DNA of 64,000 nt from Patescibacteria group bacterium (GCA_004321885.1 SCQK01000014.1:95464-159463), one strand, 5' to 3'. Positions 9,257 through 48,913 are shown, numbered from the stretch's first letter. Notes: generated from the letters alone by a model not told the origin. Made by a program: numbers and translations.

Positions 9257-9895
9257 CTAAAACAATATCGCCGCATGCGGCATTCTCGCTTTCAAAGTCC
9301 TAATCGCGCTCTTGGGAATGGGATTGCCGATAAGGTTCAGCTCGGTCAGATTTTTTAATCCGGCGATGCCGGCGGGAACGGACGTTAATTTGTTGTAAGA
9401 AAAATCCAAAATTTGCAGTGATTTAATTTCTAAAATTTTTGCCGGGATTGAGCGGTAGGTATTTTTGGCCAGAGATAAATGTGTGAGTTTTTTCAGGTTG
9501 GCGATTTCATCGGGCATGGTGTCAATTTTGTTTTCGCCGTAGTTTAGGGTTTCCAGGTTGCCGAGCTGGCCGATTTCGGCCGGGATGCCGGTCATATTAT
9601 TATTGCTCGCGTCCAAGAATTTCAAATTTTGCAAATGGCGGATTTCGGCCGGCAAGGCGCCGGTGAGATTGTTGCCGGACAAGTCCAAAATTTCCAGCGC
9701 GGTTTTGCTAAAAATATCCATGGGTACTTTGGATAAGCCGCGCTCGCTAAGGTCAAGCTGGGTCTGGCTTTGCGGTATGCGCGGCGCGAAAGTTTTCAGC
9801 GCCCCATCCCGCGATTTGGCAAAGTATAAAATACCGGCCGCGGCCACAACGAGCAAAGCAATAATCGCTCCAAGCGTTACTTTTTTTTGAGGCAT
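9257..9895 (-). CDS. Membrane-anchored leucine-rich-repeat (LRR) protein
   Basis: Tandem LxxLxLxxNxL repeats (LDLSGNNLTG, LDASNNNMTG, LSLAKNTYRS, LDFSYNKLTS). Start at MPQKK (9895) chosen because the upstream ORF-track extension to 9994 is encoded by a family-D repeat. Confidence 0.75.
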   Translation of the reverse strand: MPQKKVTLGAIIALLVVAAAGILYFAKSRDGALKTFAPRIPQSQTQLDLSERGLSKVPMDIFSKTALEILDLSGNNLTGALPAEIRHLQNLKFLDASNNNMTGIPAEIGQLGNLETLNYGENKIDTMPDEIANLKKLTHLSLAKNTYRSIPAKILEIKSLQILDFSYNKLTSVPAGIAGLKNLTELNLIGNPIPKSAIRTLKARMPHAAILF

Positions 9896-9907
9896 ATATT
9901 TGTGGTT

Positions 9908-9987
9908 CCTCTCCCCTTTACAAGGGGGAGGCTTGTCACCACACCAAAAATTTTGGTGTGGTGACAGAGAGGGGGTAATCCTCTCAC
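9908..9987. repeat. Family-D palindromic repeat (CACACCAAAAATTTTGGTGTG core flanked by CCCCT/AGGGG arms)
   Basis: Near-identical core to 26953..27025; generates an N-terminal ORF extension of the LRR gene. Confidence 0.85.
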
Positions 9988-10232
9988 ATTTCAATATCTT
10001 TTCTCATTTCCGCGAATTGCGCTTTGGTTATTTCGCCTTTGACGTATCTCTCTTTGAGAATGGCGAGCGCGTCGGCGCGCGTTGGGCTAGTTCTGGGCGG
10101 TTCGTGGTCGCGGCGCTCGCGCGAACCCTGCACCAGTGAAACAATACCCCATATCAGCGCCATCCAAAAAAGCAGCATAAACACCGGGCCGATAATTCCG
10201 TATCCTCCCCAGTTGGTAAATGGGAACATCAT
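9984..10232 (-). CDS. SHOCT-domain small membrane protein
   Basis: One TM plus C-terminal ILKERYVKGEITKAQFAEMRKDI, the SHOCT signature. Confidence 0.7.
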   Translation of the reverse strand: MMFPFTNWGGYGIIGPVFMLLFWMALIWGIVSLVQGSRERRDHEPPRTSPTRADALAILKERYVKGEITKAQFAEMRKDIEM

Positions 10233-10321: not shown

Positions 10322-10349
10322 TTGACATTTTCGCTATTTTTTTCTATAA
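10322..10349 (+). promoter_or_regulatory. Consensus sigma70-type promoter (TTGACA-17-TATAAT) driving GIY-YIG ORF / tRNA-Asn
   Basis: TTGACAttttcgctatttttttcTATAAT seen directly. Confidence 0.65.
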
Positions 10350-10353
10350 TAGT

Positions 10354-10383
10354 TGTCATTCCGGACTTGATCCGGAATCCAGC
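10354..10383. repeat. Family-B repeat just downstream of promoter 10322
   Basis: TGTCATTCCGGACTTGATCCGGAATCCAGC. Confidence 0.85.
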
Positions 10384-10444
10384 TCCTTTGAAAATAAATT
10401 CCGGGGTAGCGCTCCGCCAGCCGGCGGAGGTAGCGCAGTTGGCT

Positions 10445-10693
10445 GTGTATACTGTTTACGCTATTTACAATCAAAAAAACGATAAAATTTATATTGGACA
10501 AACAAAAGACATGGCCGAACGATTAAGGTTGCATAATGAAAAAATCCTTCTTGGTTATACTTATAGATTTGATGGAAATTGGAAATTAATTTATAGTGTA
10601 CAGATCGAGAATAGACAAAAAGCTTTACAAAGAGAGAGACAACTTAAAAGTTTTAGAGGCAGAGAATTTATAAAACAATTTATTCCGGGGTAG
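10445..10693 (+). CDS. GIY-YIG nuclease-domain protein (stand-alone, YhbQ/UPF0213-like)
   Basis: VYTVYAIYNQKNDKIYIGQTKDMAERLRLHN is a canonical GIY-YIG motif with Arg and downstream Glu (IENRQKA). GTG start at 10445 with GGAGG 14 nt upstream; the ORF track begins at TTG 10322 inside the promoter. Its stop codon lies inside tRNA-Asn. Confidence 0.65.
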   Translation: MYTVYAIYNQKNDKIYIGQTKDMAERLRLHNEKILLGYTYRFDGNWKLIYSVQIENRQKALQRERQLKSFRGREFIKQFIPG

Positions 10694-10755
10694 CGCAGCG
10701 GTAGCGCAGAGGACTGTTAATCCTTTGGTCGTGGGTTCGAATCCCACCCCCGGAG
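10684..10755 (+). tRNA. tRNA-Asn (anticodon GTT)
   Basis: Cloverleaf by hand: acceptor TCCGGGG/CCCCGGA, D-arm GCGC-AGCGGTA-GCGC, anticodon loop CTGTTAA, T-arm GTGGG-TTCGAAT-CCCAC, discriminator G; no encoded CCA. Confidence 0.85.
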
Positions 10756-10761
10756 CAAAAA

Positions 10762-10888
10762 CAAAAATACTGGTAATATCCAGTATTTTTGCTTTTGCTC
10801 GGAATACACGAAAAAATACGAACGGATTTGGGCGAATTTTAGGGCGCGGGCGAAATTCCCTCCCCACACCCCTTCCTTTCGCCCGCGA
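10762..10888. repeat. Left terminal inverted repeat of island
   Basis: Reverse complement of 15960..16086; spurious ORFs 10625..10924(-) and 15902..16105(+) share the peptide GRGVGREFRPRPKIRPNPFV because of it. Confidence 0.85.
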
Positions 10889-11065
10889 AGCGAAACGGGG
10901 GCTCTGGTGGACAAAAACTGCCAAAGAACCCGTAAAAAATGTCGGCCGAACTTTATGTTGGCCAAAAGCAAACTTTTCTCTTTGATATTGAATTACGATT
11001 GTTAAAGTGATATAATCAAGTCAATGAGCGTCCCATTCTTGCTATCTTATGTATACTATCATACT

Positions 11066-11272
11066 ATGGAAGAAAAGAAAACAATCGGCGAAAAAATAAA
11101 AAAATGGAGAGCGAAGAAAGATTTGACACAAGACGCCTTGGCAAAAAAGGCGGATATTCCATATAGCACGATTGCTAAAATTGAATCAGATGTTATTACG
11201 AGGCCAACAATACAGACAGTGCAAAAGCTGGCCGTTGGTTTGGGTATAACACTTGATGAATTATTAAAATAG
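11066..11272 (+). CDS. XRE-family helix-turn-helix transcriptional regulator
   Basis: IKKWRAKKDLTQDALAKKADIPYSTIAKIESD is a Cro/C1-type HTH. Extended -10 promoter (TGaTATAAT) with TTGAAT -35 at about 10989-11017. Confidence 0.8.
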   Translation: MEEKKTIGEKIKKWRAKKDLTQDALAKKADIPYSTIAKIESDVITRPTIQTVQKLAVGLGITLDELLK

Positions 11273-11273
11273 T

Positions 11274-12155
11274 ATGGTTAAAGGTCACAAAGTGAAAAAT
11301 GAAAAAATCGATAAAAAAATAGCTTTTGGTTGGTATGGCGGTAAGTTTAGTCATCTTGACTGGCTTTTGCCGCTGTTGCCGGAAACCGATCATTTTTGTG
11401 AGCCGTTTGGTGGCTCTGCTGCCGTTATCATAAACAGAAATCCTTCTTTAATCGAAACATATAATGATTTAGATGGCGAGGTAGTTAATTTCTTCAGAGT
11501 ATTAAGGGAACATCCTAACGATCTTATAAGACAAATTGGGCTTACTCCATTTTCGAGGGAAGAATTCAAATATGCTATTGAACACGAAGATGATAAAAAT
11601 CTTTCAGATATTGAGAGGGCTAGGTCTTTTTTTATCCGCGCAAGGCAGGTTAGGACTGGACTTGCTCAAAAAGCTACTTCTGGTAGATGGGCAAATTGTA
11701 AATTAACTTCCAGAGCCGGAATGTCAGGTGCGGTCTCGAGGTGGTTGGGAAGTGTTGACGGGCTAACAGAGATTGCGGAAAGGCTTTTACGAATACAAAT
11801 TGAAAATGCTCCTGCAATTGAAGTTGTAAGGCGATATGATAGCCCACAGACCTTATTTTACTGTGATCCTCCGTATACACATGATTCTCGAGGTGATATA
11901 AATGCCTATAAATTTGAAATGGACAGGGATGCGCATGTCGAACTGGCCGAAACACTAAAACAGGTTAAGGGGTTAGTCGCTATATCGGGTTACGACTCTC
12001 CCCTAATGAACGAGCTGTATCAAGGATGGAAAAAAATCGCTGGGCCAGTAAAAAATGCAAATTCTATACAACAACCTAGACAAGAAATTTTATGGGTTAA
12101 TTATAATATTAATGATAAATCTTTATGGAAAAAGCAGCAAAGATCCTTGATATAA
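11274..12155 (+). CDS. Dam-family (D12 class) N6-adenine DNA methyltransferase
   Basis: N-terminal WYGGK...EPFGGSAAV (SAM-binding motif I) and catalytic DPPY (FYCDPPYTHDS). Confidence 0.85.
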   Translation: MVKGHKVKNEKIDKKIAFGWYGGKFSHLDWLLPLLPETDHFCEPFGGSAAVIINRNPSLIETYNDLDGEVVNFFRVLREHPNDLIRQIGLTPFSREEFKYAIEHEDDKNLSDIERARSFFIRARQVRTGLAQKATSGRWANCKLTSRAGMSGAVSRWLGSVDGLTEIAERLLRIQIENAPAIEVVRRYDSPQTLFYCDPPYTHDSRGDINAYKFEMDRDAHVELAETLKQVKGLVAISGYDSPLMNELYQGWKKIAGPVKNANSIQQPRQEILWVNYNINDKSLWKKQQRSLI

Positions 12156-13246
12156 TTTTGAAAAAAACTAATGGGCATCTAGAAAAACCTTTTATAAAAA
12201 ATAGGGAGATTTTGCGGAAAATAGAATTTATTTCTCATAATATTCAAAATCGAGCCGGCGTCCGCCTTATTATGTCTTGCTTACTGGCGAAACTTGACGA
12301 TCCAAAAGTTGATGTAAGAAAACCTTATACGGAGATTGGCAGTCGTGATAGTTTTTCGGGCAGAACATATGACGAGGCCTATGTCGGCAGTTTTATCACT
12401 AAACATCACTTGCCGTGTAATCCAACAACAGCGTTTTTGACGCCAGCTCTACGTAATAGAAATATTGTACTTACGCCAAAAGTAAATTTAGTCGGCAGGC
12501 CACCAGAAATTTATCAATACGTTCTCGACCTCCTAGAATTAGTATTTAAAGGATTTCTTGCCCCAGCCATTCTGCTTGCGGAAATAATGCGACAACTTGT
12601 TCTTTTACGAGATGAAAATCAAAAACGTATAAAATCTTTGTTAAAGAATCTCGGGAAAAATGGTAGTGTGCCTCTTTCGGGTGAAGACATAATAAAACTT
12701 ATTGAGCAACATTTAAATTGCAAAGGAGCCAGCAGACTTCCCGTACTTATCGTGGCCGCTGCTTACAACACTATTGGAAATTTCATCCAAGAAAAAGTAT
12801 TACCTATCTTTTCTCACAATTCTGCAGATAAACAAACTGGTGCGCTCGGCGATATACAAATTACGTTAATTAATGACGAGAATGTAGTAACTAGTTATGA
12901 GATGAAGATGAAGAAGGTCACAAAGGACGACATTGATATCGCTCTGCAAAAAATTTCGGGAGTTAAGTACAAAATAGATAATTATATTTTTATAACGACG
13001 GATATAATAGATGATTCGGTAAAAGAATATGCGAAATCACTTTATGAGCAAACCGGCGGAATAGAGATAGTTGTCTTAGATTGTATTAGTTTTCTTAGGC
13101 ATTTTATTCATTTATTCCACCGCTTCAGATTGCCATATCTTGAAGAGTATCAAAAGTTGGTGATGGGTGAAGCAGACAGCGCGGTCAGTCAGCCCCTTAA
13201 AGAGGCATTTCTTGCTCTTCGACAGGCAACAGAAAGCGCGAATTAA
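12125..13246 (+). CDS. Putative type II restriction endonuclease (PD-(D/E)xK) cognate to the Dam-like MTase
   Basis: Overlaps MTase stop (translational coupling). GD-x17-YEMKMK fits a D...ExK nuclease core. No family recognised by eye; assignment is by context. Confidence 0.45.
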   Translation: MEKAAKILDIILKKTNGHLEKPFIKNREILRKIEFISHNIQNRAGVRLIMSCLLAKLDDPKVDVRKPYTEIGSRDSFSGRTYDEAYVGSFITKHHLPCNPTTAFLTPALRNRNIVLTPKVNLVGRPPEIYQYVLDLLELVFKGFLAPAILLAEIMRQLVLLRDENQKRIKSLLKNLGKNGSVPLSGEDIIKLIEQHLNCKGASRLPVLIVAAAYNTIGNFIQEKVLPIFSHNSADKQTGALGDIQITLINDENVVTSYEMKMKKVTKDDIDIALQKISGVKYKIDNYIFITTDIIDDSVKEYAKSLYEQTGGIEIVVLDCISFLRHFIHLFHRFRLPYLEEYQKLVMGEADSAVSQPLKEAFLALRQATESAN

Positions 13247-13327
13247 TGCAATAAAATAGTAAAAATGCAACCTTTTTCGGTGTGCGACGTTATATTATTG
13301 GGAGCTAAATATGACGATTATTAAAAA

Positions 13328-13984
13328 GTGTTTATCTTTATGGATATTGAAGCCGAAAAAGAACAAATCGTGAAGGCCCAAAGTAATATCAAGGAGTTTG
13401 CGCCTTTATTTGATGAATATTACCCCCAAATACTTAAATATTTAATAGGGCGTATCCGCAGTGTGGAAATTGCCCAGGATATTGCATCTGTTACATTCTT
13501 GAAAGCCTTAGAGAATATAAAAAAATTTAACTGTCGGGGGATTAGCATATCATCGTGGCTGTACCGAATAGCTACGAACGAGGTCACTACATATTTTAGA
13601 AAAAATAAAACCCTTTCACTCGATGAGATAAGGGCATGTGAAAATTTTGATCCGCCCGCTATCGGCAACCCGTACATTGAAATTGTCCAGGCGCAGGAAA
13701 AAATTGAAAATGATAAAAAATTTTTGAATCTACAAAATGAGATTCTAAAATTACATATAAATTATCAAGAAGTCATAATGTTGCGATATTTCGAGAAAAA
13801 ACAAATAAATGAGATAGCAGAAATTTTAAATAAAAGCGAGGGGACGATTAAATCTCTCCTCCATCGAGGTTTGAAAAAATTAAAAAAAAATTTTCAACTA
13901 CACAACAGTGACGCCAGAACGCAACCTTTTCAAAATAAAAACGTTCTAAATATAGAACAGGTACTAGTACCCATAAAATTATGA
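13328..13984 (+). CDS. ECF-subfamily RNA polymerase sigma factor
   Basis: Region 2 (ISSWLYRIATNEV) and region 4 HTH (INEIAEILNKSEGTIKSLLHRGLKKLK). Confidence 0.8.
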   Translation: MFIFMDIEAEKEQIVKAQSNIKEFAPLFDEYYPQILKYLIGRIRSVEIAQDIASVTFLKALENIKKFNCRGISISSWLYRIATNEVTTYFRKNKTLSLDEIRACENFDPPAIGNPYIEIVQAQEKIENDKKFLNLQNEILKLHINYQEVIMLRYFEKKQINEIAEILNKSEGTIKSLLHRGLKKLKKNFQLHNSDARTQPFQNKNVLNIEQVLVPIKL

Positions 13985-14223
13985 ATGACCTACAGGAGTT
14001 AGAAAAAATGTTAGAGGAGATCGAGGTTCCGTCTGTGGACTTAAATATAAATAAGGAGTTGTTGAAGAGTTACCTATTTAGAAATGAGCGGGTTGAATTT
14101 GAGAGCAGCAAACAAGATAACTCCATATTTGCCCCGCAGTTTGAATTTTTACCTTGTCCGTCATTTACGTATGATTATTTAATTAATGATTTTAATTCAA
14201 CTACATATGTCCTTAGTTATTAA
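13981..14223 (+). CDS. Small hypothetical protein (80 aa), start overlaps sigma-factor stop (ATGA); possible anti-sigma/adaptor
   Basis: ATGA overlap with upstream sigma gene and 17-38 nt overlap with downstream hydrolase. No TM segment and no recognisable domain. Confidence 0.4.
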   Translation: MNDLQELEKMLEEIEVPSVDLNINKELLKSYLFRNERVEFESSKQDNSIFAPQFEFLPCPSFTYDYLINDFNSTTYVLSY

Positions 14224-15169
14224 TGTAACCACACCCGAAGGAATTGTGTTAGCAGCTGATAGTCGTCAAAGCTACCGCAACCAAAAAGGCGCAGCCCGTA
14301 TAGGCAGCGATAACGCTTCGAAACTGTTTAAATTAAACGACCGGATAGCTGTTGCAGCTACAGGCATGGCCTTTTTACCTGAAAAAGGAATGCTTAAAAA
14401 TATAAGTAAATTTATAGAACAATTTAAAAAAATTGAAATTGAAAAAATAGAAAATATATCAGTTAAGGAAACGGCAGAAAAAATTCATGAATATTTCAAA
14501 AGTATATACAAAGTAGAAGACCAGATAAGGGCAATTGAGCAGCAAATTACAAATGATATCGCAAAAAACGGGGGTAAAATATTGAGAACAGACGCTAAAA
14601 AAAATATAGTTATTGTAGAGTTTGAAGATGCAAATGGGAAAAAAGGTGTTGCCAACGTAGTTCTGGAGCCCTTGAATTTCATGGTGGCTGGTTTTAATAG
14701 CAATTTCGATTCGCACGAGGTTTACACGTGTAGAATACCGGGGGGGATAGAATTAAAAAGAAATAGTAGCGTGGATAATAAAGAGTATGGCGCCTCGTGG
14801 GAAGGGCAAAATGATGTGGTAGCGCGAATTGTCTTGGGTTTTGATCCTAGGATAGGGAATATAAAATTTGTACAAGAAGCAGCGGAAAAAATTGGGAAGG
14901 ATCAAATTAATGAACAGCTTAGAAATTTAGAATACGCAATACAATGGGGCACCATGACTTTGCAAGATGCTATCGACTTTTGTGTGTTAATTATAAAAAC
15001 AACCTCAGCCATTCAAAGATTTTCGGATGGCATTAAAGCTGATCCTGGTGCAATCCCTGGCGTGGGCGGCTCCATCGATGTGGTGGTCATCAGACCAGAA
15101 GAGGGGTTTAATTGGGTAAGTAAAAAGAAGTTATCTATCAATGAAAATTGTTCAGAAATAAATTTTTAA
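14186..15169 (+). CDS. Proteasome-beta/HslV-like Ntn threonine hydrolase (elongated, 327 aa)
   Basis: After a short propeptide (MILIQLHMSLVINV) the sequence TTPEGIVLAADSRQS...SKLFKLNDRIAVAATGMA matches the proteasome-beta N-terminal nucleophile Thr plus the Lys33 region. C-terminal GVGGSIDVVVIRPEEG matches the beta-subunit SGG...VxVI motif. About 100 aa inserted between. Confidence 0.65.
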   Translation: MILIQLHMSLVINVTTPEGIVLAADSRQSYRNQKGAARIGSDNASKLFKLNDRIAVAATGMAFLPEKGMLKNISKFIEQFKKIEIEKIENISVKETAEKIHEYFKSIYKVEDQIRAIEQQITNDIAKNGGKILRTDAKKNIVIVEFEDANGKKGVANVVLEPLNFMVAGFNSNFDSHEVYTCRIPGGIELKRNSSVDNKEYGASWEGQNDVVARIVLGFDPRIGNIKFVQEAAEKIGKDQINEQLRNLEYAIQWGTMTLQDAIDFCVLIIKTTSAIQRFSDGIKADPGAIPGVGGSIDVVVIRPEEGFNWVSKKKLSINENCSEINF

Positions 15170-15193
15170 TAAATTATTTTTAACTAATAGTTT

Positions 15194-15838
15194 ATGAAAA
15201 AACCTCTTTATATAATGCTCCATCACTCGGCTGTTTCATACGACAAAAATCCAGATCAATTTGATGCAAATAATAATTACCATAAAGCACAGTGGAATTT
15301 TAAAGGTTCCCTTGGTTTTTATCTTGGTTACAATTACGAAATATCTAAAACCGGCCTGACACGACAAGCCCGAGCAGACGGTGAAGTTACGGCAGCATGC
15401 TATCAAAAAGATATGAACGATGGTAGGTGTATACATATTTGTATGGATGGCCACTTCGATCAAGAAAAACCAACGCCAGAACAAATAGAGGCGTTAAGAA
15501 AATTGCTAAAACAAAAATTCGAGGAGCACAATATCAAAAGAGAGAACTTAATTTTTCATAGGGATTACGCCCCTAAAACCTGTCCGGGGTCTAATTTAGA
15601 CATAAAAAATATTCGCGATCTTGCCACACCGGAAGGCAATGAATTGTACGCAGCCGCATTGACGCTTATGAAAGAGAATAATTCACCAGCTATTTACTTT
15701 TTCGGTTTTGATAATATGTGGCACGGACTTGGGGATATGGATATTTTAAAATCATTAAAAGGAAACTATAATCCAGTAGAAATAATGAAAGTAGAAAATC
15801 TCCCTGATAATATTTCATTTTCAATAGGCAAACAATAA
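15194..15838 (+). CDS. N-acetylmuramoyl-L-alanine amidase (Amidase_2/PGRP fold, zinc-dependent)
   Basis: IMLHHSA ... HICMDGHFD ... HRDYAPKTCPG carries the His/His/Cys zinc ligands of the T7-lysozyme/PGRP family. Confidence 0.75.
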   Translation: MKKPLYIMLHHSAVSYDKNPDQFDANNNYHKAQWNFKGSLGFYLGYNYEISKTGLTRQARADGEVTAACYQKDMNDGRCIHICMDGHFDQEKPTPEQIEALRKLLKQKFEEHNIKRENLIFHRDYAPKTCPGSNLDIKNIRDLATPEGNELYAAALTLMKENNSPAIYFFGFDNMWHGLGDMDILKSLKGNYNPVEIMKVENLPDNISFSIGKQ

Positions 15839-19175: not shown

Positions 19176-22052
19176 ATGCCTAAGAGAAAAAAGAGGGATA
19201 GACGCGTAAGGTACGCGTTTTTGGCGATAGTTTTGTGTTTGGCCGCGGGCGGTGCCGGCGCGGCCGTGTATTTAACATCAAAGGCCAGTTCGGCGAATTT
19301 TAGCGCGCAAATTTACGGCGCGGTTTCGCCGCGATTAAACGTTATAGACGTGGATTTTTTGCGCGACAATAATTTGAAGTTCACGCAGGACAAAAAAACC
19401 AATTTCGTGCGCTCGCTTTCGGCCCTGGGCCAGCCCATTCCTTTAAGCAAAGGAAATTTGGTCAGCGACTTGGCGGTCAGCAATCAATTTTTGAAAGACT
19501 ACGCGCGCTTTTTCGGAGTGGGCGACAGCAAACAACTCATACTGCATTCGTCCAAGAAAGACGAGCTGGGGCTAAGTCACATAAAATACCAGCAAAAAAT
19601 CGGCGGGGTGCCGGTGTTTGGCGCACAGATGCTGGTGCACGTAAAAGAGGACCTGTCCGTCAATTCAGCGGCCGGCAAACTATTGGCCAATGTTTCCATC
19701 AATACCAATCCCAAAATCACGGGGCGCGCGGCCGGCGACGCGGTGAAGCGTTCGTGGCAAAAGAGCGACAAGGCGCCCAAAGTTTCGGCGGGCAAGCTGT
19801 ATATTTTCAACAAGAACCTTTTGGACGCTCGGTTTGAAAATAAAAATCATCTAACCTGGGAGATAAAGGCCGTGGACGCGGATTCGGGCTTTTCCGAAAC
19901 CTATTACATAGACGCAACCAGCGGAGCAATTTTGCAGAAAATTTCCAATGTCAAACAGATTAGCCGTCGGATTTTTAATTGCGGCAACAATCGCAACCGT
20001 ACTACCTGCCGAAACATGCTGGGCGCCGCGGCCAGCCGGGCGCAAAACGACCGGGCCGAGGGCTGGGCCGCCGCGGGCGTGGCCGAGGTTGACAACGTCT
20101 ATCAAATGATGAACCAGGCGCATAATTATTTTCAAAACACCTTTGGCATAGACGGCGCCAACGGCCGCGACGGCATTGGCGACAACACCGACGGCCATCC
20201 GCGCACCTCCACCGACGTTTATGCTGATTGGCTTATCCCCGCCAGCTGGGGTTTTAATTGTCCCAATTCTTTCTTTTTCGAAAACAAGCTGATGTTCTGC
20301 AACAACACGGTCAATCTGCCGGTGGTGGGACACGAATACATGCACGGCGTGGCGCACTTCAACGGCCCGCCCCTCACTTACGCCTACGAGTCCGGCGCCA
20401 TTGAAGAGGCCAATGCCGACATCTTTGGCCAGGCCCTGGAAAATGCCGTGACCGGCTCTTCCAGCTGGCGCATCGGCCCCACTGGCGGAAATCTGTGGCG
20501 CAATATCGTCAATCCCGCTTCGCTCAATGACCCGGACCGGTTTTACAGCAACAATTTTTATTGCGGAGATAATGACGAGGGCGGGGTGCACAACAATTCC
20601 AATGTCATTTCACACGCCGCGTATTTGCTTGCCACCGGCGGCAGTTTCAACGGCTGTTCCATAGACAGCATCGGCCAAAACAGAATGGAAAGAATTTTCT
20701 ACCGCGCCCTGACAGTTTACCTCACGGCCAGTTCGGATTTCAATGATTTGTACGACGCGCTGGACAATGCCTGCGGCGACCTGTATTCCGACGCGATTTG
20801 CGCGCAAGTGCGCCGCGCCTTGCAGGCCGCGGAAATAGACCAGCCCGGGCGATGCAGCGGCACAGCGGCCGCGCCCAAGCCAACCTGTTTTCCGCCGTAT
20901 ATTCTTTCGGTGTCGGCGAATGCCGGGCATTATCGGGCCAATCAAAGTATTACATTGAGGTTTAAGTTTTCCAAGCCCGTGCGCACGGCCGGCGCCGTGG
21001 ATGTGTTCGCGGTCTTAAACGGCCGCACGGCCGAAAAAATTTGCTCCCTTGATTTGAGCTCGCGCGCCGACGACGTGTCATGCTCGTTTAAGGTAAATGA
21101 CGGCGACAGCGGCCGTCTGCGCGTGGACAGAATTGAGTGGGATGTCAAGAGGCCGATTTTGGACGCTGATTCAAGCGAGCTTACCGATATGGTGCCGGCC
21201 GAGCAGTTTCCCAAGGGCGACGTGATTATAGACACCGCCAAGCCAACCGGAAGCGTTACCATCAATAGCGGGGCTAAAACCACGGCCAGCCATATAGTGG
21301 AGCTGGCGCTAAGTTCAAACGACGACAAAGCCGGGTTGCTATACCGCGTTTCCAACAACGGCGTCAGTTACAGCCGTTGGGATGATTTTGCGGCAACGAC
21401 GTCGTGGAATTTGTACAACGCGGACGCGGGCGGCGGGGTGTTTCCCACCACCAACAGTGGATATCCGCGCACGGTTTATGTTCAGTTCAAAGACCAGGCC
21501 GGCAATGTTTCCGACACGTATTCGGCCAATATCACCTTTAGCCGGCTGACGATTTTAATAGAAGAGCCGGCGCAACTTGCGGTTCCAACTTCATCACAGC
21601 CGAATGGCGCGAATCTCCTACTCAATATTCCCCCCAGCGCCCTGACCATCCCCGGCGTCAATGTTACAGTTACGCAGACAAGCGCGGTGGTTCTGCCGCA
21701 GATTTCCACGACCACTGTCAATTTGAATCCGGCGATTTCTTCTTCGCTTATTGATGTTGTCAGTGTTCCGGATTTCACGATTTCCGTAAAGCAGGGCGGG
21801 CTGACAACATATTTGAGCGGCGCCATAAATTATTGGGGCAAGGGGGCAAAATGCGAGGGCCCGCGAACTTATGACGCGGTAGTAGCGAACTGGGGCGATG
21901 GCGCATCAGCCAAGCCCGCGCGCAAGGATAAAACATTCTATGCTTCGCATACTTACGCCAAGACCTTTGGCTCGTACAAGATTTTGGTAAAGGTTTACAA
22001 CAGTTGCGGTGGCAGCGCGAGCAAATCTTTGTACGTAAAGCCGCAGATATAA
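19176..22052 (+). CDS. Large membrane-anchored thermolysin-like (M4) zinc metallopeptidase with long C-terminal beta-rich extension
   Basis: HEXXH as VVGHEYMHGV; downstream EGGVHNNSNVISHAAYLL matches the thermolysin GGVHxNSGIxNKAAY active-site His region. N-terminal TM; 958 aa. Confidence 0.7.
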   Translation: MPKRKKRDRRVRYAFLAIVLCLAAGGAGAAVYLTSKASSANFSAQIYGAVSPRLNVIDVDFLRDNNLKFTQDKKTNFVRSLSALGQPIPLSKGNLVSDLAVSNQFLKDYARFFGVGDSKQLILHSSKKDELGLSHIKYQQKIGGVPVFGAQMLVHVKEDLSVNSAAGKLLANVSINTNPKITGRAAGDAVKRSWQKSDKAPKVSAGKLYIFNKNLLDARFENKNHLTWEIKAVDADSGFSETYYIDATSGAILQKISNVKQISRRIFNCGNNRNRTTCRNMLGAAASRAQNDRAEGWAAAGVAEVDNVYQMMNQAHNYFQNTFGIDGANGRDGIGDNTDGHPRTSTDVYADWLIPASWGFNCPNSFFFENKLMFCNNTVNLPVVGHEYMHGVAHFNGPPLTYAYESGAIEEANADIFGQALENAVTGSSSWRIGPTGGNLWRNIVNPASLNDPDRFYSNNFYCGDNDEGGVHNNSNVISHAAYLLATGGSFNGCSIDSIGQNRMERIFYRALTVYLTASSDFNDLYDALDNACGDLYSDAICAQVRRALQAAEIDQPGRCSGTAAAPKPTCFPPYILSVSANAGHYRANQSITLRFKFSKPVRTAGAVDVFAVLNGRTAEKICSLDLSSRADDVSCSFKVNDGDSGRLRVDRIEWDVKRPILDADSSELTDMVPAEQFPKGDVIIDTAKPTGSVTINSGAKTTASHIVELALSSNDDKAGLLYRVSNNGVSYSRWDDFAATTSWNLYNADAGGGVFPTTNSGYPRTVYVQFKDQAGNVSDTYSANITFSRLTILIEEPAQLAVPTSSQPNGANLLLNIPPSALTIPGVNVTVTQTSAVVLPQISTTTVNLNPAISSSLIDVVSVPDFTISVKQGGLTTYLSGAINYWGKGAKCEGPRTYDAVVANWGDGASAKPARKDKTFYASHTYAKTFGSYKILVKVYNSCGGSASKSLYVKPQI

Positions 22053-22063
22053 CGAGTAAAAAA

Positions 22064-22096
22064 ACAAGGCCTTGGGATAATCCCCAAGGCCTTTTG
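22064..22096 (+). terminator. Rho-independent terminator after M4 peptidase
   Basis: AAGGCCTTGGG-ATAAT-CCCCAAGGCCTT + TTTGG. Followed by a second hairpin GGCCGCCCCGC..GCGGGGCGGCC serving the convergent minus-strand gene. Confidence 0.65.
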
Positions 22097-22163
22097 GTTG
22101 TGCCTGCCCGTGGCAGGCAGGGGCCGCCCCGCGTGAAGAAGCGGGGCGGCCATGAGGCGCTGG

Positions 22164-22856
22164 TCAGGTACAACCCGGGATCGGGTTGTTTTTGCACCCG
22201 ATGCTGGGAATGCACTCGTTGGTGGTGCAGGCATTCCCATCATCGCAGAAGTCCGGACAAGAGCCGCAACTTCCGGCGATACTGGTCCAGGTGCAAAATC
22301 CGTTGACGCACCCGACTTGGGTACACCCCACGTAGTAGTTGACGCATGGGGTCGTCGGGAGCGAACAAGCGACCTTGGCGCAAGCGCCTGACACACAGTG
22401 CAGCCCCTTGTTACAGAAGCTGTTGTTGCCGCTACACTTGCCGCTGGGCAGGCAGTTGTAGCACCGCGCGCCCTCGGAGCCCTGGGCCGGCTGGACATCG
22501 GGCTTGACCACGATGCTGTCCGGCGGCGGTTTCTTGTCTGGCGCCGGCTTGTCCGGCAGTGGCTTAGTGTCGTGCGTCGGCTTGGTGTCTGGCGTGCCCT
22601 TGTCCGGGCCAAGGTCCGCGCCCAGCTCGCGGCCTGCTTCACGCTTCGGCGTGAACGCGTCAGCCGCCATGTCGGGCATGCCGCCCTCCACGCTGGCTGC
22701 GCTGTCTTGCCAGCTGTCAGCGACAGCGGCGTCAATGCCGCTGTCCAGCCGGTTCTTGTCGGCCTGGGCGTCCACCGACGCCGCCGGGTTGTAGCCAAAG
22801 AGCAGGTGGCACCCGCCGGCGCCCAGCGCCAGCATTGCGATGAAAAGAGCCTTCAT
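22164..22856 (-). CDS. Cys-rich secreted lipoprotein with Pro/Lys/Asp linker and myxococcal-type cysteine-rich repeats; very GC-rich
   Basis: Signal peptide with lipobox-like LGAGGC; PDKPAPDKKPPPD linker; 21 Cys in the C-terminal half including CDDGNACTTNEC (cf. the CDDGNxCTxDxC repeat). Local GC well above surroundings, which generates spurious overlapping ORFs in other frames. Confidence 0.6.
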   Translation of the reverse strand: MKALFIAMLALGAGGCHLLFGYNPAASVDAQADKNRLDSGIDAAVADSWQDSAASVEGGMPDMAADAFTPKREAGRELGADLGPDKGTPDTKPTHDTKPLPDKPAPDKKPPPDSIVVKPDVQPAQGSEGARCYNCLPSGKCSGNNSFCNKGLHCVSGACAKVACSLPTTPCVNYYVGCTQVGCVNGFCTWTSIAGSCGSCPDFCDDGNACTTNECIPSIGCKNNPIPGCT

Positions 22857-23055
22857 GTTCTCTCCTTTTCTTGAAGCGCCCTATCCATAAGGACGCTTGT
22901 TTGTTTTTGTCAAGTTTTGCCTATTTTGGCCAAAACTCGGGCGTATCATATCTTGCGCCTGGCCAAAAAACAAGCAGAACCTATTATTTAATACACAAAA
23001 AGCGAGAGTTGTCAACCTTGCGCCAATATGGTAAATATGGTAAAATTGTTGGCGA

Positions 23056-23084
23056 TGGATTCCGGCTCGGGGGCCGGAATGACA
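23056..23084. repeat. Family-B repeat upstream of PAP2 gene
   Basis: TGGATTCCGGCTCGGGGGCCGGAATGACA. Confidence 0.85.
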
Positions 23085-23093
23085 CGACTGGTT

Positions 23094-23630
23094 ATGTTTG
23101 AAAAAATTGTTCAGTTGGATAAATATCTAAATCAGGAGTTCGTCGGTTCCGGCGGAAAATTTTTGCAGGGATTGGGAATTTTTATTGATTCGGCTTCGGG
23201 CATGGTTGTTTTTGGCGTCATCGGCCTAATCGCGGCGCTGTATTTTTGCAAAACAAAAAAATGGCGCGAGCTGGCCTTGTTTTTCGCGGCCGGGGCCGGC
23301 GCGGTTTTTTGGGAATTATTTTTGAAATGGGTTTTTGGCCGGCCGCGCCCGGGCGCGCTGTCGCCGACCGATGGTTTTAGTTTCCCCAGCGGGCACGCGA
23401 CTGTTTCCCTGGCTGTCTTTGGCGCTATAATATATTTGTTTGCTCCGCGCATAAAAAATAAAAATTGGCGCAAGATTTTTATCGGCGCTTGCGCTCTGTT
23501 TATTCTTCTCATCGGCGTCAGCCGCGTGTATCTGGGGGTGCATTGGTTTAGCGATGTAGTGGCCGGCTTTGCTCTCGGTTTAGTTTGGCTTTGGCTGGTA
23601 ATTTTTGGCTTCAAACGATTTTGGCGATAG
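23094..23630 (+). CDS. PAP2-family phosphatase (undecaprenyl-diphosphatase/phosphatidate phosphatase type)
   Basis: KWVFGRPRP, PSGHA and SRVYLGVHWFSDV are the three PAP2 motifs. The ORF-track N-terminal extension (from 23028) is encoded by a family-B repeat. Confidence 0.85.
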   Translation: MFEKIVQLDKYLNQEFVGSGGKFLQGLGIFIDSASGMVVFGVIGLIAALYFCKTKKWRELALFFAAGAGAVFWELFLKWVFGRPRPGALSPTDGFSFPSGHATVSLAVFGAIIYLFAPRIKNKNWRKIFIGACALFILLIGVSRVYLGVHWFSDVVAGFALGLVWLWLVIFGFKRFWR

Positions 23631-28207: not shown

Positions 28208-28714
28208 TTAACGTGTTATAAAATAAAACAGCGCGCTGAGGGCGACCAGCGGCCCCACGGACAGCGCTATTTTTTCAAAGGGAAAATGCGCGTGCCCGTT
28301 GTTTTTAGTTTTGAGATAAAAATATAAATTGGCGCCGGCGTAAAATACCACACTGCCGATGATGATGCCGAGCAGTAGTTTGTCCATGCCCCACAGGGTA
28401 TTGTATGGATGTCCTATGACATTCATCCAGAACAGGGGAACAATGGTGAGGCCATAATAAACAATCGCGAAAACAATGCCGCTTAATTTGAAGTTTTTGC
28501 CTTTTTTGATAAGCCAGTTTTTTGTCCACATTGTCAGCGCGGCCAGCAGGCCGCCCACCCACAAGCCGGTAATGGCATCATCCACGCCCAGCCAGCGCGA
28601 CAGCCCCACGCCCGCCCCCACGGCCACGGCGCAGACAGGGCACACTGCTTTGGCCGGAGCCGCGGCGGCAAGAATGACGAGGATACTAATTAGCGACGTT
28701 TTTTTGTTTAACAT
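28208..28714 (-). CDS. Polytopic membrane protein with CPVC motif (possible thiol-disulfide oxidoreductase partner)
   Basis: 4-5 TM helices; CxxC (AVCPVCAV) in the first hydrophobic segment. Confidence 0.5.
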   Translation of the reverse strand: MLNKKTSLISILVILAAAAPAKAVCPVCAVAVGAGVGLSRWLGVDDAITGLWVGGLLAALTMWTKNWLIKKGKNFKLSGIVFAIVYYGLTIVPLFWMNVIGHPYNTLWGMDKLLLGIIIGSVVFYAGANLYFYLKTKNNGHAHFPFEKIALSVGPLVALSALFYFITR

Positions 28715-29057
28715 ACTGAAATAAATAATCTCTCACCTGGTCTTCTCCGACGTGGCAAGAAGCGCCGTCTGACAAAAACGGCACCCCCACCTGCCCGCCC
28801 GGCAGACCGCATTTTTTGGCGGCCCTGGCCATGTCCAGGGCATTGCCCTGGTCGTGATAAACTTCTTTGCGGTTGATGGTTATTTTTTCGTCCAGCTTGT
28901 TGCTTTGAATGAAAGCGTCTATGTTGGCGCAGTGCGGGCATTCGCGACCGTAATATAAAACAATCTCTCCGGCCGCGGCTGGTTTTTCGCGGAAAAGAAA
29001 AATTACGCCGGCGATGGCCGCGAGAGAAATGATGACAAGCAGGGTTGTTTTTTTCAT
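28686..29057 (-). CDS. Membrane-anchored thioredoxin/glutaredoxin-fold protein (CPHC)
   Basis: MKKTTLLVIISLAAIAGVIF anchor, YYGRECPHCANI CxxC, later VGVPFL cis-Pro region. Start at 29057; the ORF-track extension to 29222 overlaps rpmB. Confidence 0.65.
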   Translation of the reverse strand: MKKTTLLVIISLAAIAGVIFLFREKPAAAGEIVLYYGRECPHCANIDAFIQSNKLDEKITINRKEVYHDQGNALDMARAAKKCGLPGGQVGVPFLSDGASCHVGEDQVRDYLFQYVKQKNVAN

Positions 29058-29065
29058 GTTAATCC

Positions 29066-29242
29066 TTAGGCCGCCTTTTTGGCCAGAGTGCGCCGGCAGG
29101 TGGAGCAGACGCGCGCGGAAACGCCGTCCAGCTTTATCATCTGCAAGTTCGGCTTTTGGCGCCGCGGCGTTTTGATGTTGGAGTGGCTGACGCTGTTGGC
29201 GCGGGCCGCTTTTTTTCCGCACAAGTCGCAGGTTCGGGACAT
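29066..29242 (-). CDS. rpmB: 50S ribosomal protein L28
   Basis: MSRTCDLCGKKAARANSVSHSNIKTPRRQKPNLQ matches the L28 consensus (M-R-C..GK...GN.VSHSN..T.R...PNLQ). Confidence 0.85.
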   Translation of the reverse strand: MSRTCDLCGKKAARANSVSHSNIKTPRRQKPNLQMIKLDGVSARVCSTCRRTLAKKAA

Positions 29243-39540: not shown

Positions 39541-39590
39541 AATAATTAAAGGTCGAGACAAAAAGTGTGTCTATTAAAATAAACATAAAT

Positions 39591-40418
39591 TATATGTTCA
39601 AAAAAATTATAACCCTAACACTGGTGGCCGCGATGGCTCTGGCCCTGGTCGCTCCGGCGTCGGCCTCTACTTTGGACGACACCACCACTACCCTGAAAAA
39701 CAAACTGAAAGATTTGAATAGTCAGATTAAGGATGTCAGGAAACAGTTGAATAAAGTGTCTGTCTTGAAAAGAATACTCGCCCGTCCGTTTGTTTTGAAA
39801 GGCGAATTGGTTTCTGTCGCTGGTCTCACGCCTCCGACCACGCTTACGGTAAAATTAACCGGCATGTCGCCGAAAAGACCAAATGACGCCGAAGCTGTTT
39901 GGCCTGAAATTGGGAAAGAATTGACCGTAAAAATAACCGAGAAAACACAGATTGTGCGCCGCTATTGGGGCAAGAGCTCGCTGGAAGAGCTGACTCCCGG
40001 CGATAAACTGCACATTGTCGCCAAGAGGGGCGAAGACGGCGTGTTCACGGCTACGGTGGTTAAAGACGAGTCAATCCATGTTACCTTCCGCGTGCACAAT
40101 GGCAAAATTGAGTCCATTGACGCGGCGGCCCAGACCTTTGTTTTGAAGCAGAACAACAAACGGCAGGTAACGGTGAAAGTTTCCGCCAAGACAAAACTGT
40201 TCGTGCTTGGCGTAACCAATCCGACATTCGCTGATTTGAAAGTCGGCATGAGGGCGCATGTGCGCGGAGTGATAAACAACCGAACCAAGACCATAGACGC
40301 TTCGCTCGTGCGCGCCAATTGGCCGCTCGTGGAAGCGACTCCCACCAGCACTCCTACTCCGGTGCCGGCGCCTGCCCCAACACCCACTCCCGCGCCGACC
40401 TCCACCACTTCAACCTGA
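39591..40418 (+). CDS. Secreted protein with internal duplicated beta-domain and Pro/Thr-rich C-terminal tail
   Basis: Signal peptide MFKKIITLTLVAAMALALVAPASA; repeated K-T/Q-hV-x-R motifs; tail TPTSTPTPVPAPAPTPTPAPTSTTST. Confidence 0.5.
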   Translation, partial: YMFKKIITLTLVAAMALALVAPASASTLDDTTTTLKNKLKDLNSQIKDVRKQLNKVSVLKRILARPFVLKGELVSVAGLTPPTTLTVKLTGMSPKRPNDAEAVWPEIGKELTVKITEKTQIVRRYWGKSSLEELTPGDKLHIVAKRGEDGVFTATVVKDESIHVTFRVHNGKIESIDAAAQTFVLKQNNKRQVTVKVSAKTKLFVLGVTNPTFADLKVGMRAHVRGVINNRTKTIDASLVRANWPLVEATPTSTPTPVPAPAPTPTPAPTSTTST

Positions 40419-40931: not shown

Positions 40932-42272
40932 TTAATATTCCAAACGCCACAATCCTTCCACATTCCCAATTTTATCCACGTAATACAGCGCCTTCTGCCC
41001 CGGGTCAGCCGCGGCCACAGCCGCGTTTCCATCCGCCAATTCATGGGTCACGTAATAATACGGAAACAAGGCCGTAATTTTATTTTTCCAGACCAGCGCC
41101 AAAGTATTGTGCTTGTCCAGCGGAAATACGTTCATTAAATTTTCGCCGGAGCGGTTTAGCAAATAGGGCTCTTCGCCCGCGCTGTATGTCCACAGCTCCC
41201 ACGGCGTCCACATCAGCCACCAATTGTTGTATGGCGAGATATAAAATTTGTCGCCGGCAAAAGCAAATTTTTTGTCTCTTGTCACGAGCATCATCTCAGA
41301 CGCGTTGTTTTTTTTCAAAAGCGCGCTGTCGCGTTCGGCGTAAAGCAGCCGCCAATCTTCCGTGTTTTCCAGTTGGCCGATTTCGGATTGAAAACCCAAA
41401 GCGTCTTTTTTGACGAGTAGATTGTGGCTGGAGGTGGCGAATGTTAGAGTCCAGAGCTGGCCGTTGTCCATATACCAGTCGTAAAAATCGCGCTCGGAGA
41501 TTTTTTGCGCGCGTCCATTGGCTGGCGAAAAGGCGAACAGCCCGTCTCGCGTTTGATAATATAAACTCGGTCTGCTGCCGTCGCCCCATTGCGTTTTGAT
41601 GATTTTTACCCCGGCGATTTTGGTTAAATTGTAAATCTTGCCCGGATTATCCGGCGCCTGCCTGCCGGCAGGCAGGCAAAACGCGTAGACAACGTCATTG
41701 CCTGTCACGGAGGCGCAATTTTTTTCCTTTGCCCACGCCAGAGACGGCAATGTTTTTGGCATGGTTGTCACGCTCGCCAGCGCTTCGGTTTTGGTGTTTA
41801 ACAACCAAATTTTCCCGTCGGCCGACGAGGCAAAAAGAATATAGCGGCCGTCGCTGGAAAGCGCCAGCGCGGCAATTTGCCCGGGGGCCGCCAAGAGCGG
41901 CCTGGCATTTTTTTTGAGCAGGCTGATTTCCTTTATATACACGGTCAGCTTGTTAAAGACCTCTATTTCTTTGTTCCAGTCCGCGTAGCCGGGCGCTGTG
42001 ATGCGCAAGCTGTATTTGGCCGGCGCGATATTGTTTAGGCGCACCGGCATCTTGCTTTTGATTTTGATGCCGTTCAAATAAAGCGCCGCGTTTTTGGGCT
42101 CCACGTCCACGCTGATGGCGCCGGTCTGTTTCAAGAAGCCGTTTTTGAAATCATAGCGATAGCCGGCGGTGTAGGCGATTATTATCGGGGAAACGACAAA
42201 AAAAAGCGCGATGAGCGCGAGCAGAAAAGCGCGCCGGAAGGCGAAAGTAAATCTGGTGCCCGGGTATTCCAT
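40932..42272 (-). CDS. Membrane-anchored PEGA-domain protein with C-terminal beta-propeller-like region
   Basis: N-terminal TM; PEGA module ISVDVEPKNAALYLNGIKIKSKMPVRLNNIAPAKYSLRITAPGYADWNKEIEV. Confidence 0.6.
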   Translation of the reverse strand: MEYPGTRFTFAFRRAFLLALIALFFVVSPIIIAYTAGYRYDFKNGFLKQTGAISVDVEPKNAALYLNGIKIKSKMPVRLNNIAPAKYSLRITAPGYADWNKEIEVFNKLTVYIKEISLLKKNARPLLAAPGQIAALALSSDGRYILFASSADGKIWLLNTKTEALASVTTMPKTLPSLAWAKEKNCASVTGNDVVYAFCLPAGRQAPDNPGKIYNLTKIAGVKIIKTQWGDGSRPSLYYQTRDGLFAFSPANGRAQKISERDFYDWYMDNGQLWTLTFATSSHNLLVKKDALGFQSEIGQLENTEDWRLLYAERDSALLKKNNASEMMLVTRDKKFAFAGDKFYISPYNNWWLMWTPWELWTYSAGEEPYLLNRSGENLMNVFPLDKHNTLALVWKNKITALFPYYYVTHELADGNAAVAAADPGQKALYYVDKIGNVEGLWRLEY

Positions 42273-44975: not shown

Positions 44976-45734
44976 ATGGGCCATGAAAAATGGTTAATTA
45001 AACACGAAGAGGAGTGGCGCGTTAAAGACGCTATTAGACGCGCCCTGTTTGAAACCCGTAGTTCTGATACGCCTGAAAGCATATATGCCGTGATGGTCGG
45101 AGTACTTAAAGATTTGGTGTCAAAAATGGACGAAATTTCCCTGTCTAAATTAAAAAGAGGCCGCGAATACGTGCTGTCTGATAAGATGCTAAAGGATTTA
45201 GCCGATGGAATGTTGGATTATGTAATTAAGAGAAACGAGTTGAAAGTTGATGATGAGATGATAAGGCGTAGAACAGCGTTGATTTTAGAAGCGCTTAGAG
45301 AATATTCGGATGGCGTTTCGCGCTCGCTTGCCGAGCCGGTAATAAATCGGGTCGAACAAAAATTAAGGGATAATCGTTTGGAGGAACAGTCTCAATTTTC
45401 TTTATTGGATGCCGATCAGATATTTATGCGGCTTAAGAGGTTGAGCATCCCTGGCATGAGAAAAATGCTTCTTAATCCACGTAGTAGCACTTTGCATAAT
45501 TTATTATTGCAATCTATTGTTGAGACCGATTTTTCGGAAACAAATATAACCGAGTCAGCCCGTATTTTTACGGATAAGTTATTCGGTAAAATAGATAAAG
45601 AAAATCCAGAAGCTAACGCTTTTTTAATTAAAATTGAGCAATGGTTAGGTGATGAAAAGAATCAACAATCATTGCATTTATTAAAACAAGAATGGGAAGC
45701 AACGCAAAGGGAAGGCAAGCCGCCCGTAAGATAA
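44976..45734 (+). CDS. AT-rich hypothetical protein (252 aa)
   Basis: ORF only; preceded by family-A repeat 44932..44969. Confidence 0.45.
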   Translation: MGHEKWLIKHEEEWRVKDAIRRALFETRSSDTPESIYAVMVGVLKDLVSKMDEISLSKLKRGREYVLSDKMLKDLADGMLDYVIKRNELKVDDEMIRRRTALILEALREYSDGVSRSLAEPVINRVEQKLRDNRLEEQSQFSLLDADQIFMRLKRLSIPGMRKMLLNPRSSTLHNLLLQSIVETDFSETNITESARIFTDKLFGKIDKENPEANAFLIKIEQWLGDEKNQQSLHLLKQEWEATQREGKPPVR

Positions 45735-48872: not shown

Positions 48873-48913
48873 CCGATGAACAGTCAGCGATAAAAATATT
48901 CTTCTATAAACTT

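Follow-up and report, generated by a model that had tools for sequence, protein, structure and literature searches.

We examined a 64-kb stretch of DNA from a Patescibacteria group bacterium (hereafter, the window; coordinates are counted from its first nucleotide) and concentrated on one gene, at positions 22164 to 22856 on the minus strand, which an earlier note made from the sequence had singled out as a very GC-rich gene for a cysteine-rich lipoprotein. NCBI lists the product, on a contig of 159,463 bp, as hypothetical protein EPN28_04370 of a Patescibacteria group bacterium (100% identity, a self-match), and we use this designation for both gene and protein. The features of the gene and its flanks, each with the analysis from which it was drawn, are the following.

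22164..22856, minus strand: complete open reading frame (ORF) of 230 codons plus a TGA stop, with an ATG start (ORF listing)
22862..22867, minus strand: Shine-Dalgarno sequence AAGGAG, 5 nt 5' of the ATG (sequence reading)
22809..22856, minus strand: predicted signal peptide and lipobox, residues 1-16, MKALFIAMLALGAGG/C16 (lipobox regular expressions)
22464..22808, minus strand: acidic Ala/Asp/Pro/Gly-rich linker, residues 17-131 (composition, charge-hydropathy, GC profile)
22518..22607, minus strand: PDK-type imperfect repeats within the linker, residues 84-113, PDKGTPDTKPTHDTKPLPDKPAPDKKPPPD (Tandem Repeats Finder [TRF]; direct-repeat family D1)
22248..22463, minus strand: unclassified Cys-rich segment, residues 132-203, with 14 Cys (Cys positions; no family match)
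22179..22247, minus strand: single putative Dicty_CTDC-type repeat, residues 204-226, CDDGNACTTNECIPSIGCKNNPI, followed by the C-terminal PGCT (PF00526, own profile, AlphaFold2 [AF2])
22101..22152, minus strand: two GC-rich hairpins without U-tracts in the 3' untranslated region (fold, inverted repeat I7, GC profile)
22066..22093, both strands: bidirectional intrinsic terminator with stems of 11-12 bp and T-runs on each side (terminator scan, fold)

We regard the ORF as a real gene because it combines the AAGGAG site, the ATG, a lipobox signal peptide and the positional GC order GC3>GC1>GC2 (0.81, 0.58, and 0.55 at third, first, and second codon positions, respectively), which is the pattern expected of the genuine frame in a GC-rich gene. 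Three long ORFs overlap it, at 21995-22798 on the minus strand (267 amino acids [aa]) and at 22398-22874 (158 aa) and 22504-22794 (96 aa) on the plus strand. The first two are the spurious ORFs in two other frames that had been noted before, and they are the usual stop-free by-products.

The surrounding genes are ordinary Patescibacteria genes (TerC, a DUF3298/PdaC protein, an M4 peptidase, PAP2, PLD, RarA, QueH, and TsaE). The nearest RarA sequences (77-80% identity) are labelled Candidatus Magasanikbacteria or Patescibacteria, and on this sequence evidence the host is a Magasanikbacteria-like Patescibacterium. The M4 peptidase gene (19176-22052; 958 aa) is convergent with EPN28_04370, tail to tail, as had been stated, and the terminator at 22066-22093 serves both genes on their 3' side. 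The further statement that EPN28_04370 is bracketed by bidirectional terminators was incorrect, since the terminator scan found no second one on the 5' side, where the region at 22857-23027 is a divergent promoter region common to EPN28_04370 and the PAP2 gene. The two hairpins of the 3' untranslated region (22122-22151, 11 bp; 22101-22119, 8 bp) lie between the terminator and the stop codon, and the three hairpins together give the RNA of 22050-22166 (minus strand) a folding energy of -64.7 kcal/mol (z, -5.8). No further copies of the GC-rich 3' hairpin were found in the window as a dispersed repeat.

Domain organization of EPN28_04370

The N terminus has the positive residue, hydrophobic core and lipobox Cys that characterize substrates of Lgt and LspA. 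The lipobox, MKALFIAMLALGAGGC, fits both the G+LPPv2 and the PROSITE-type patterns; its -3 residue is Ala, where Leu is commonest. The lipoprotein signal reported from the first reading of the sequence is thus borne out, and EPN28_04370 is probably a membrane-tethered putative lipoprotein.

The linker that follows comprises ~115 residues, of which 48 of 115 are Ala, Asp, or Pro, and carries a net charge of -7. By the charge-hydropathy criterion it scores as disordered, whereas the Cys-rich remainder of the protein (the head), which is neutral, scores as folded. The linker also is the GC-richest part of the gene (0.67-0.75). Within it, TRF detected an array at 22517-22595 with a period of 18, 4.6 copies, and 69% matches, and the PDKPAPDKKPPPD spacer that had attracted attention previously is present at residues 101-113. 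No homologue of the linker was found in protein searches. Bacterial lipoproteins with long disordered N-terminal tethers form a general class. EPN28_04370 resembles them in its lipobox Cys, its long low-complexity linker, and its C-terminal folded domain and differs from them in that its head is unrelated.

EPN28_04370 contains 19 Cys residues, namely, the lipobox Cys16 and 18 in residues 132-229 (98 aa). The original count of 21 in about 110 aa was too high, but the strong enrichment that it described is real: the other proteins of the window contain 0.97% Cys, and the head is enriched ~19-fold (P, ~7e-18). The head has 99 residues and an even number of Cys (18). Its larger part, residues 132-203, contains two CxxC motifs (CYNC, 132-135; CGSC, 197-200) and has no Pfam or NCBIfam match at E<=10; three quarters of the Cys-rich part fits no family. 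The DSL/EGF-like relationship that had been put forward as an HMM (hidden Markov model) check was not found, as neither EGF, DSL, TIL, nor any other Cys-rich Pfam family matched at E<=10. EPN28_04370 also was unmatched in PHROGs and PADLOC, and a PDB sequence search returned chance matches only; the label "toxin-like" therefore has no PHROG, PADLOC, or PDB match behind it. A Foldseek search of the AF2 model against the PDB returned nothing at E<=0.001. In that model, the predicted local distance difference test score (pLDDT) is <50 for residues 132-203, and confidence is limited to the last ~28 residues.

The last Cys-rich stretch of the protein could be classified. PF00526 (Dicty_CTDC) matches residues 204-226 with 21.2 bits (E, 2.5e-4) over profile positions 2-24 of 24, and the match begins with CDDGNACTTNEC (residues 204-215), which also had been pointed out earlier. 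The Cys framework of the family, C-x5-C-x4-C-x5-C with DDGN and CT motifs, is present. A profile of our own, made from 359 repeats of the matches described below, scores 34.1 bits at the same residues (E, 9e-13 for a search space of one sequence), and in alignment A1 the residues C, D, C, T, D, C, G, and C are invariant or nearly so. AF2 models the repeat as a beta-hairpin with a pLDDT of 84-93.

Searching residues 126-230 against 1.84 billion cluster representatives with HMMER gave 66 matches at E<=1e-3, nearly all of which align only to query residues ~70-104, many times each. All 10 of the 10 top matches scanned by Pfam are PF00526 proteins with 4-18 repeats. Few repeat-level matches carry organism names, and similarity is confined to one repeat; those named are Dictyostelium citrinum, a Myxococcales bacterium, Minicystis sp. 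(Myxococcota), and a "slime mold repeat-containing protein." Judged from its sequence, the correct class of residues 204-226 is the slime mold CTDC repeat (PF00526 type), in a single copy that takes up the last 23-27 residues of the head.

Our own CTDC profile gave only fragments of -3.6 and -0.4 bits on residues 132-203. The Cys spacings of the head (5-4-4, 6-4-4, and 5-4-5) resemble those of CTDC repeats by spacing only, and comparison of residues 132-203 with the inter-repeat modules of CTDC proteins produced weak, biased alignments only. We considered and rejected a head made of three degenerate CTDC repeats, since only the last of the three is recognized by the CTDC profile.

Dicty_CTDC proteins include the Dictyostelium matrix proteins ecmA and ecmB (PMC4931340 Table 4; PMC9117722), and teneurin-like proteins of the bacterial surface carry CTDC repeats in their N-terminal regions (bioRxiv 10.1101/2025.11.11.687626). 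At the time of PMC8078820, no structure had been solved for the family. On a contig (L009 1-4487; ENA ERZ21867824 ctg123370l), a 13-repeat CTDC gene (P0004) has DsbA-family thioredoxin genes on both sides, an arrangement that suggests a dedicated oxidative-folding neighborhood for bacterial CTDC-repeat proteins. Taken with the Dictyostelium matrix proteins and the bacterial surface proteins, this DsbA-flanked gene supports, by analogy, the view that the CTDC repeat would be extracellular and disulfide bonded.

EPN28_04370 residues 204-226 have the framework C-DDGNAC-TxxxC-xPxxGC-xxxP(I/V) in common with PF00526 proteins at large (EcmA/EcmB; the bacterial proteins P0002-P0004; Myxococcales NUN16239.1; Minicystis MEO7328818.1), with which they also share a secreted context and, in some bacterial members, the P-I-P-G-C continuation. 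The differences are considerable. Those proteins have 5-21 tandem copies of the repeat, compared with one in EPN28_04370 at a subcutoff score; the rest of its head is not CTDC; and the protein is small (230 aa), with a lipobox, a predicted disordered stalk, and a Patescibacterium as host. Another counterpart is P0023/P0068 (201 aa; GCA_007127615.1; locus GC, 0.646), which consists of a signal peptide, a dockerin-like segment, and three CTDC repeats with the end TPIPGCGP. Like EPN28_04370, it is small and secreted, has a C-terminal CTDC repeat ending in PIPGC, and comes from a GC-rich genome, as would be expected of a donor-like organism. Unlike EPN28_04370, it has three canonical repeats and neither lipobox nor stalk; the N termini are unrelated, and the similarity is that of the repeat only (46 bits).

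Base composition, relatives, and origin

The GC content of the EPN28_04370 gene is ~0.645, compared with a window mean of 0.494 (standard deviation [sd], 0.053). The richest 693-bp segment of the window, 22141-22833, reaches 0.659 (z, 2.9), and 0.2% of segments are equally high. The gene had been said to have a far higher GC content than anything else in the window. It does hold the maximum, but the distance was overstated, as the runner-up segment (1041-1733), which lies within the IMP dehydrogenase gene guaB (284-1858), has a GC content of 0.623 and a GC3 of 0.73. This segment encodes the Ala/Gly-rich catalytic part of the enzyme. Composition-driven GC peaks therefore exist in housekeeping genes of the window, and the guaB peak is just such an island as had been named beforehand as an argument against a foreign origin. 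The composition of the window is heterogeneous, since low-GC islands occur in it too. The GC-rich block itself spans from ~22101, taking in both 3' hairpins, to the start codon; outside it, GC falls sharply to 40-47%.

Using its own amino acids and the codon frequencies of the window, the expected GC content of EPN28_04370 is 0.577, compared with 0.646 observed and ~0.51 for a typical gene. About half of the GC excess is therefore due to the Ala/Gly/Pro/Asp/Cys-rich composition of the product. The remainder is seen at third codon positions: GC3 is 0.809, compared with 0.663 expected from the same amino acids and host codon usage (z, 5.1), where the host reference is the genes of the 64-kb window. 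The same treatment of 45 core genes gave z values from -4.3 to +2.7 (sd, 1.7), and GC3 thus lies beyond the host range after amino acid control. The codons concerned are the following.

Lys AAG: 12 of 14 in EPN28_04370 (AAA, 2); host frequency, 0.28
Asn AAC: 11 of 12; host frequency, 0.45
Val GTC: 7 of 12; host frequency, 0.16
Leu CTG: 8 of 12; host frequency, 0.30
Leu TTG: 0 of 12; host frequency, 0.37

This pattern is not an expression-level bias, because DnaK, PyrG, LepA, and guaB keep the host codon pattern. The deviation is present separately in the non-repeat linker, in the PDK repeats, and in the Cys head and therefore was not made by amplifying one repeat unit.

Among 5.8 billion proteins searched by word index, the only full-length match was EPN28_04370 itself, and the taxonomy of the nearest homologue, proposed earlier as a check on the origin, accordingly says nothing from which a donor could be inferred. 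EPN28_04370 gave no match when the contigs of GTDB genomes, JGI metagenomes, and IMG/VR were scanned or when it was looked up exactly on contigs, and a contig scan with its PLD neighbor likewise gave none. Neither the window nor any of eight related loci (42-49% GC) yielded a paralogue, and tblastn of EPN28_04370 against these loci gave no match.

The PLD-RarA-QueH-TsaE block is kept in relatives L001 and L003/L004 (RarA identity, 78-79%), and EPN28_04370 is absent at the syntenic position in these relatives. The slot upstream of the block holds a Zip transporter gene and a small coiled-coil ORF in L001, and in L003/L004 it is occupied by two genes, one on the minus strand for an unrelated secreted protein of 726 aa and one for a membrane protein of 206 aa. 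The slots compared were 7636-8760 of L001, 5945-8858 of L003, and 22164-23630 of the window; the 726-aa signal-peptide protein of L003/L004 has no Pfam domain. From this comparison, the slot appears to be a hot spot of surface-protein turnover.

As judged from these sequence comparisons, EPN28_04370 is lineage specific, compositionally foreign, and situated in a variable surface-protein slot. Its foreign codon usage makes the horizontal acquisition proposed in the earlier note plausible, and the absence of the gene in relatives agrees with it, although about half of the GC excess that prompted the proposal is compositional. Acquisition from a GC-rich donor is the most economical reading. It probably was fairly recent, and Myxococcota-like donors are plausible. 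Horizontal gene transfer into Patescibacteria is common and well documented (PMC12455944).

Proposed function and competing explanations

Our preferred reading, to which we give a probability of about 0.55, is that EPN28_04370 is an orphan lipoprotein of the cell surface, acquired horizontally from a GC-rich bacterium, whose disordered stalk bears a binding head locked by disulfides. The protein would be exported by the Sec pathway, modified with diacylglyceryl, and cleaved at Cys16, through which it would be lipid anchored at the outer face of the cytoplasmic membrane. The flexible stalk would act as a spacer carrying the head through or beyond the wall. Oxidative folding, with up to nine disulfides, would turn the head into a compact module that resists proteases and that, by analogy with the Dictyostelium CTDC matrix proteins and the bacterial CTDC surface proteins, may bind something outside the cell as an adhesin or as a matrix- or ligand-binding tip. 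The earlier suggestion of a surface adhesin agrees with the secreted, lipoprotein-type N terminus, the low-complexity spacer, and the Cys-rich C terminus; the adhesin function itself is something that we infer.

Several observations weigh against this reading. The PF00526 score of 21.2 is below the gathering cutoff of 27, a value that is normally met by summed repeats and that a single copy cannot attain; the family is defined by tandem arrays, and EPN28_04370 has one copy. AF2 reached a mean pLDDT of 55.7 when given an alignment of 29 sequences and of 43.8 from the single sequence, and it left residues 132-203, which fit no family, without a confident fold. The binding head is argued by analogy from one 23-residue repeat. 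With regard to export and folding, lgt and lspA were not found in the 64-kb window, and neither was a confirmed Dsb or VKOR gene. With regard to origin, amino acid composition already accounts for about half of the GC excess, and a likelihood score of synonymous choice is no outlier (z, -0.26), because the host too favors G/C-ending codons overall. No donor homologue was found, and no integrase or transposase adjoins the gene. The nearest relatives are distant (RarA, 78-79%), so the absence of the gene from them does not date its gain. The gene lies between two identical direct copies of the 10-mer AAAAAACAAG (22059-22068 and 22965-22974; spacing, 906 bp). We considered this pair as an insertion scar and rejected it as chance level, since ~0.75 such pairs are expected at random in the 1.25-kb region.

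Five other explanations were weighed, all of which are less well supported than an acquired surface lipoprotein. Two of them concern the origin of the DNA. EPN28_04370 may be a native, fast-evolving, lineage-specific gene whose GC content is high because its Ala/Gly/Pro/Asp/Cys-rich sequence is partly repetitive. This is unlikely, but host codons on its amino acids already give a GC content of 0.577, its GC-richest part is the low-complexity linker with the 18-nt imperfect tandem repeat, and a guaB segment reaches 0.623 for compositional reasons; moreover, the GC block ends exactly at the start codon, the Shine-Dalgarno sequence and promoter region are host-like, and a donor was not found in our searches. 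A native gene does not account for a GC3 that is 5.1 sd over expectation after amino acid control and beyond the range of the 45 core genes, or for the use of AAG, CTG, GTC, and AAC opposite to the choice of the host, also outside the repeats and in the Cys head; the relatives, at 42-49% GC, are without a homologue. That the block is an assembly chimera or a contaminant fragment in a metagenome-assembled contig is very improbable. The composition of a block of ~750 bp is foreign to that of the 159-kb contig, and only one contig carries the protein, as a chimera would predict, but the block is gene sized and lies between host-like signals (the shared terminator on one side and the Shine-Dalgarno sequence and divergent promoter region on the other), and a mis-join would usually change composition on one side only.

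The remaining three concern the nature of the protein. The reading put forward originally, in which EPN28_04370 is a member of the TIGR02232 (myxo_disulf_rpt) family of myxococcal Cys-rich repeats and an acquired adhesin or toxin-like module, now deserves scarcely any credence. The named repeat-level matches do include two Myxococcota, the codon usage is foreign and GC rich, and the CDDGN motif presumably is common to EPN28_04370 and the TIGR02232 consensus. TIGR02232, known from Myxococcus, also is an acidic Cys-rich repeat with a CDDGN-like motif from secreted proteins of GC-rich bacteria. However, its repeat length and Cys framework differ, and its HMM has no match at E<=10 to either the whole protein or the Cys domain, whereas a synthetic consensus scores 142.5 bits (cutoff, 20.8); membership of the family is ruled out by this test with its positive control. 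The Myxococcales match, P0008, is itself without a TIGR02232 match, the 10 other top matches scanned by Pfam (P0008 not among them) are all PF00526 proteins, and no toxin, PHROG, or PADLOC family was matched. What survives of the original assignment is a recognized Cys-repeat class with two Myxococcota among its named matches; the family is PF00526 instead.

An association with the adjacent secreted M4 (thermolysin-like) peptidase, of which EPN28_04370 would be a membrane-tethered, disulfide-rich inhibitor or partner, is improbable. Small Cys-rich inhibitors of M4 peptidases exist, such as the insect IMPI and the Streptomyces SMPI; protease inhibitors typically are small, Cys-rich, and extracytoplasmic, and the two genes are tail-to-tail neighbors with a common terminator. 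Being convergent, though, they are not cotranscribed; neither the full-length M4 orthologues (L005 and L006; 53-54%) nor the 40% relative (L007/L008) has a Cys-rich neighbor; and EPN28_04370 has no inhibitor family or PDB match and shows neither the pairing nor the similarity of IMPI and SMPI. A head that binds metal through CxxC pairs without disulfides, in the manner of a metallothionein or zinc ribbon, would suit the motifs CYNC (132-135) and CGSC (197-200) and the Cys content of 18%, but we give this reading hardly any chance, as the predicted signal peptide implies an extracytoplasmic domain, the Cys residues are even in number, the C-x4-6-C spacing is like that of disulfide repeats, and the terminal repeat belongs to an extracellular class, one gene of which has DsbA neighbors.

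A more far-reaching version of the acquired surface lipoprotein, to which we attach a slender chance, is that residues 132-203 and the single CTDC repeat together could form an undescribed disulfide-knot fold, brought by interphylum transfer into an ultrasmall episymbiotic Patescibacterium, where a disordered stalk with a lipid anchor would display it as a tip for host recognition or attachment.

Significance and other features of the window

To our knowledge, host recognition and attachment by Patescibacteria remain largely unexplained beyond type IV pili, and lineage-specific acquired surface proteins are candidate determinants of host attachment. EPN28_04370 offers a clean, small case, in which a gene of foreign composition lies between native signals and encodes a putatively tethered Cys repeat of the eukaryote/Myxococcota type. 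It also is one hypothetical orphan among many and does not challenge current understanding. Cysteine-repeat surface proteins are a known class, of which it is a small novel form, a modest curiosity and not a new system. The main practical value of the analysis is one of correction, in that the CDDGN motif leads to PF00526 and not to TIGR02232 and that about half of the GC anomaly is compositional. What the earlier note observed is largely correct; its interpretation holds in outline, in that the product is a secreted protein with a Cys-rich repeat and its gene probably was acquired, and is wrong in the family and in several details.

Three genes of the window encode possible extracytoplasmic thiol-disulfide oxidoreductases, which existing families do not recognize and which could assist oxidative folding, none of them confirmed. 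Two form a pair on the minus strand: 28686-29222, for a membrane-anchored CPHC protein in a glutaredoxin/DsbA-like context (weak; E, 0.02-0.5), and the adjoining 28208-28714, for a polytopic CPVC protein. The third (58232-59140, plus strand) encodes a transmembrane-anchored protein with SYCPYG and GSPTLIING motifs.

The M4 peptidase encoded at 19176-22052 is unusually long, with a C-terminal extension of ~400 aa, and its nearest relatives have 53-54% identity. Its gene may be an older acquisition, because its AAG/AAA ratio of 27/23 departs from the host norm of ~0.28 AAG.

The region at 10322-15838 is a low-GC island (GC, 0.34-0.39; GC3, ~0.32, compared with 0.61 in the core) that adjoins tRNA-Asn (10684-10756). 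It contains a GIY-YIG nuclease ORF, the 3' end of which overlaps the tRNA start; a Dam-type methyltransferase together with a SacI-like restriction endonuclease; an extracytoplasmic function-type sigma factor; a proteasome-like protein; and an Amidase_2/endolysin-like protein. The region has the look of acquired DNA and may be what is left of a phage. Two further genes of low GC content are 44976-45734 (GC, 0.394), which has no Pfam or PHROG match, and 48797-49459 (GC, 0.377), which encodes an IS200-like Y1 transposase (PF01797; PHROG transposase). Other proteins of the window are predicted to be surface located or secreted, namely, a leucine-rich repeat protein (9257-9994, minus strand), a DUF5666 protein with a Pro/Thr-rich tail (39567-40418, plus strand), a PEGA-domain protein (40932-42272, minus strand), and an S8 subtilase (51029-53017, plus strand).

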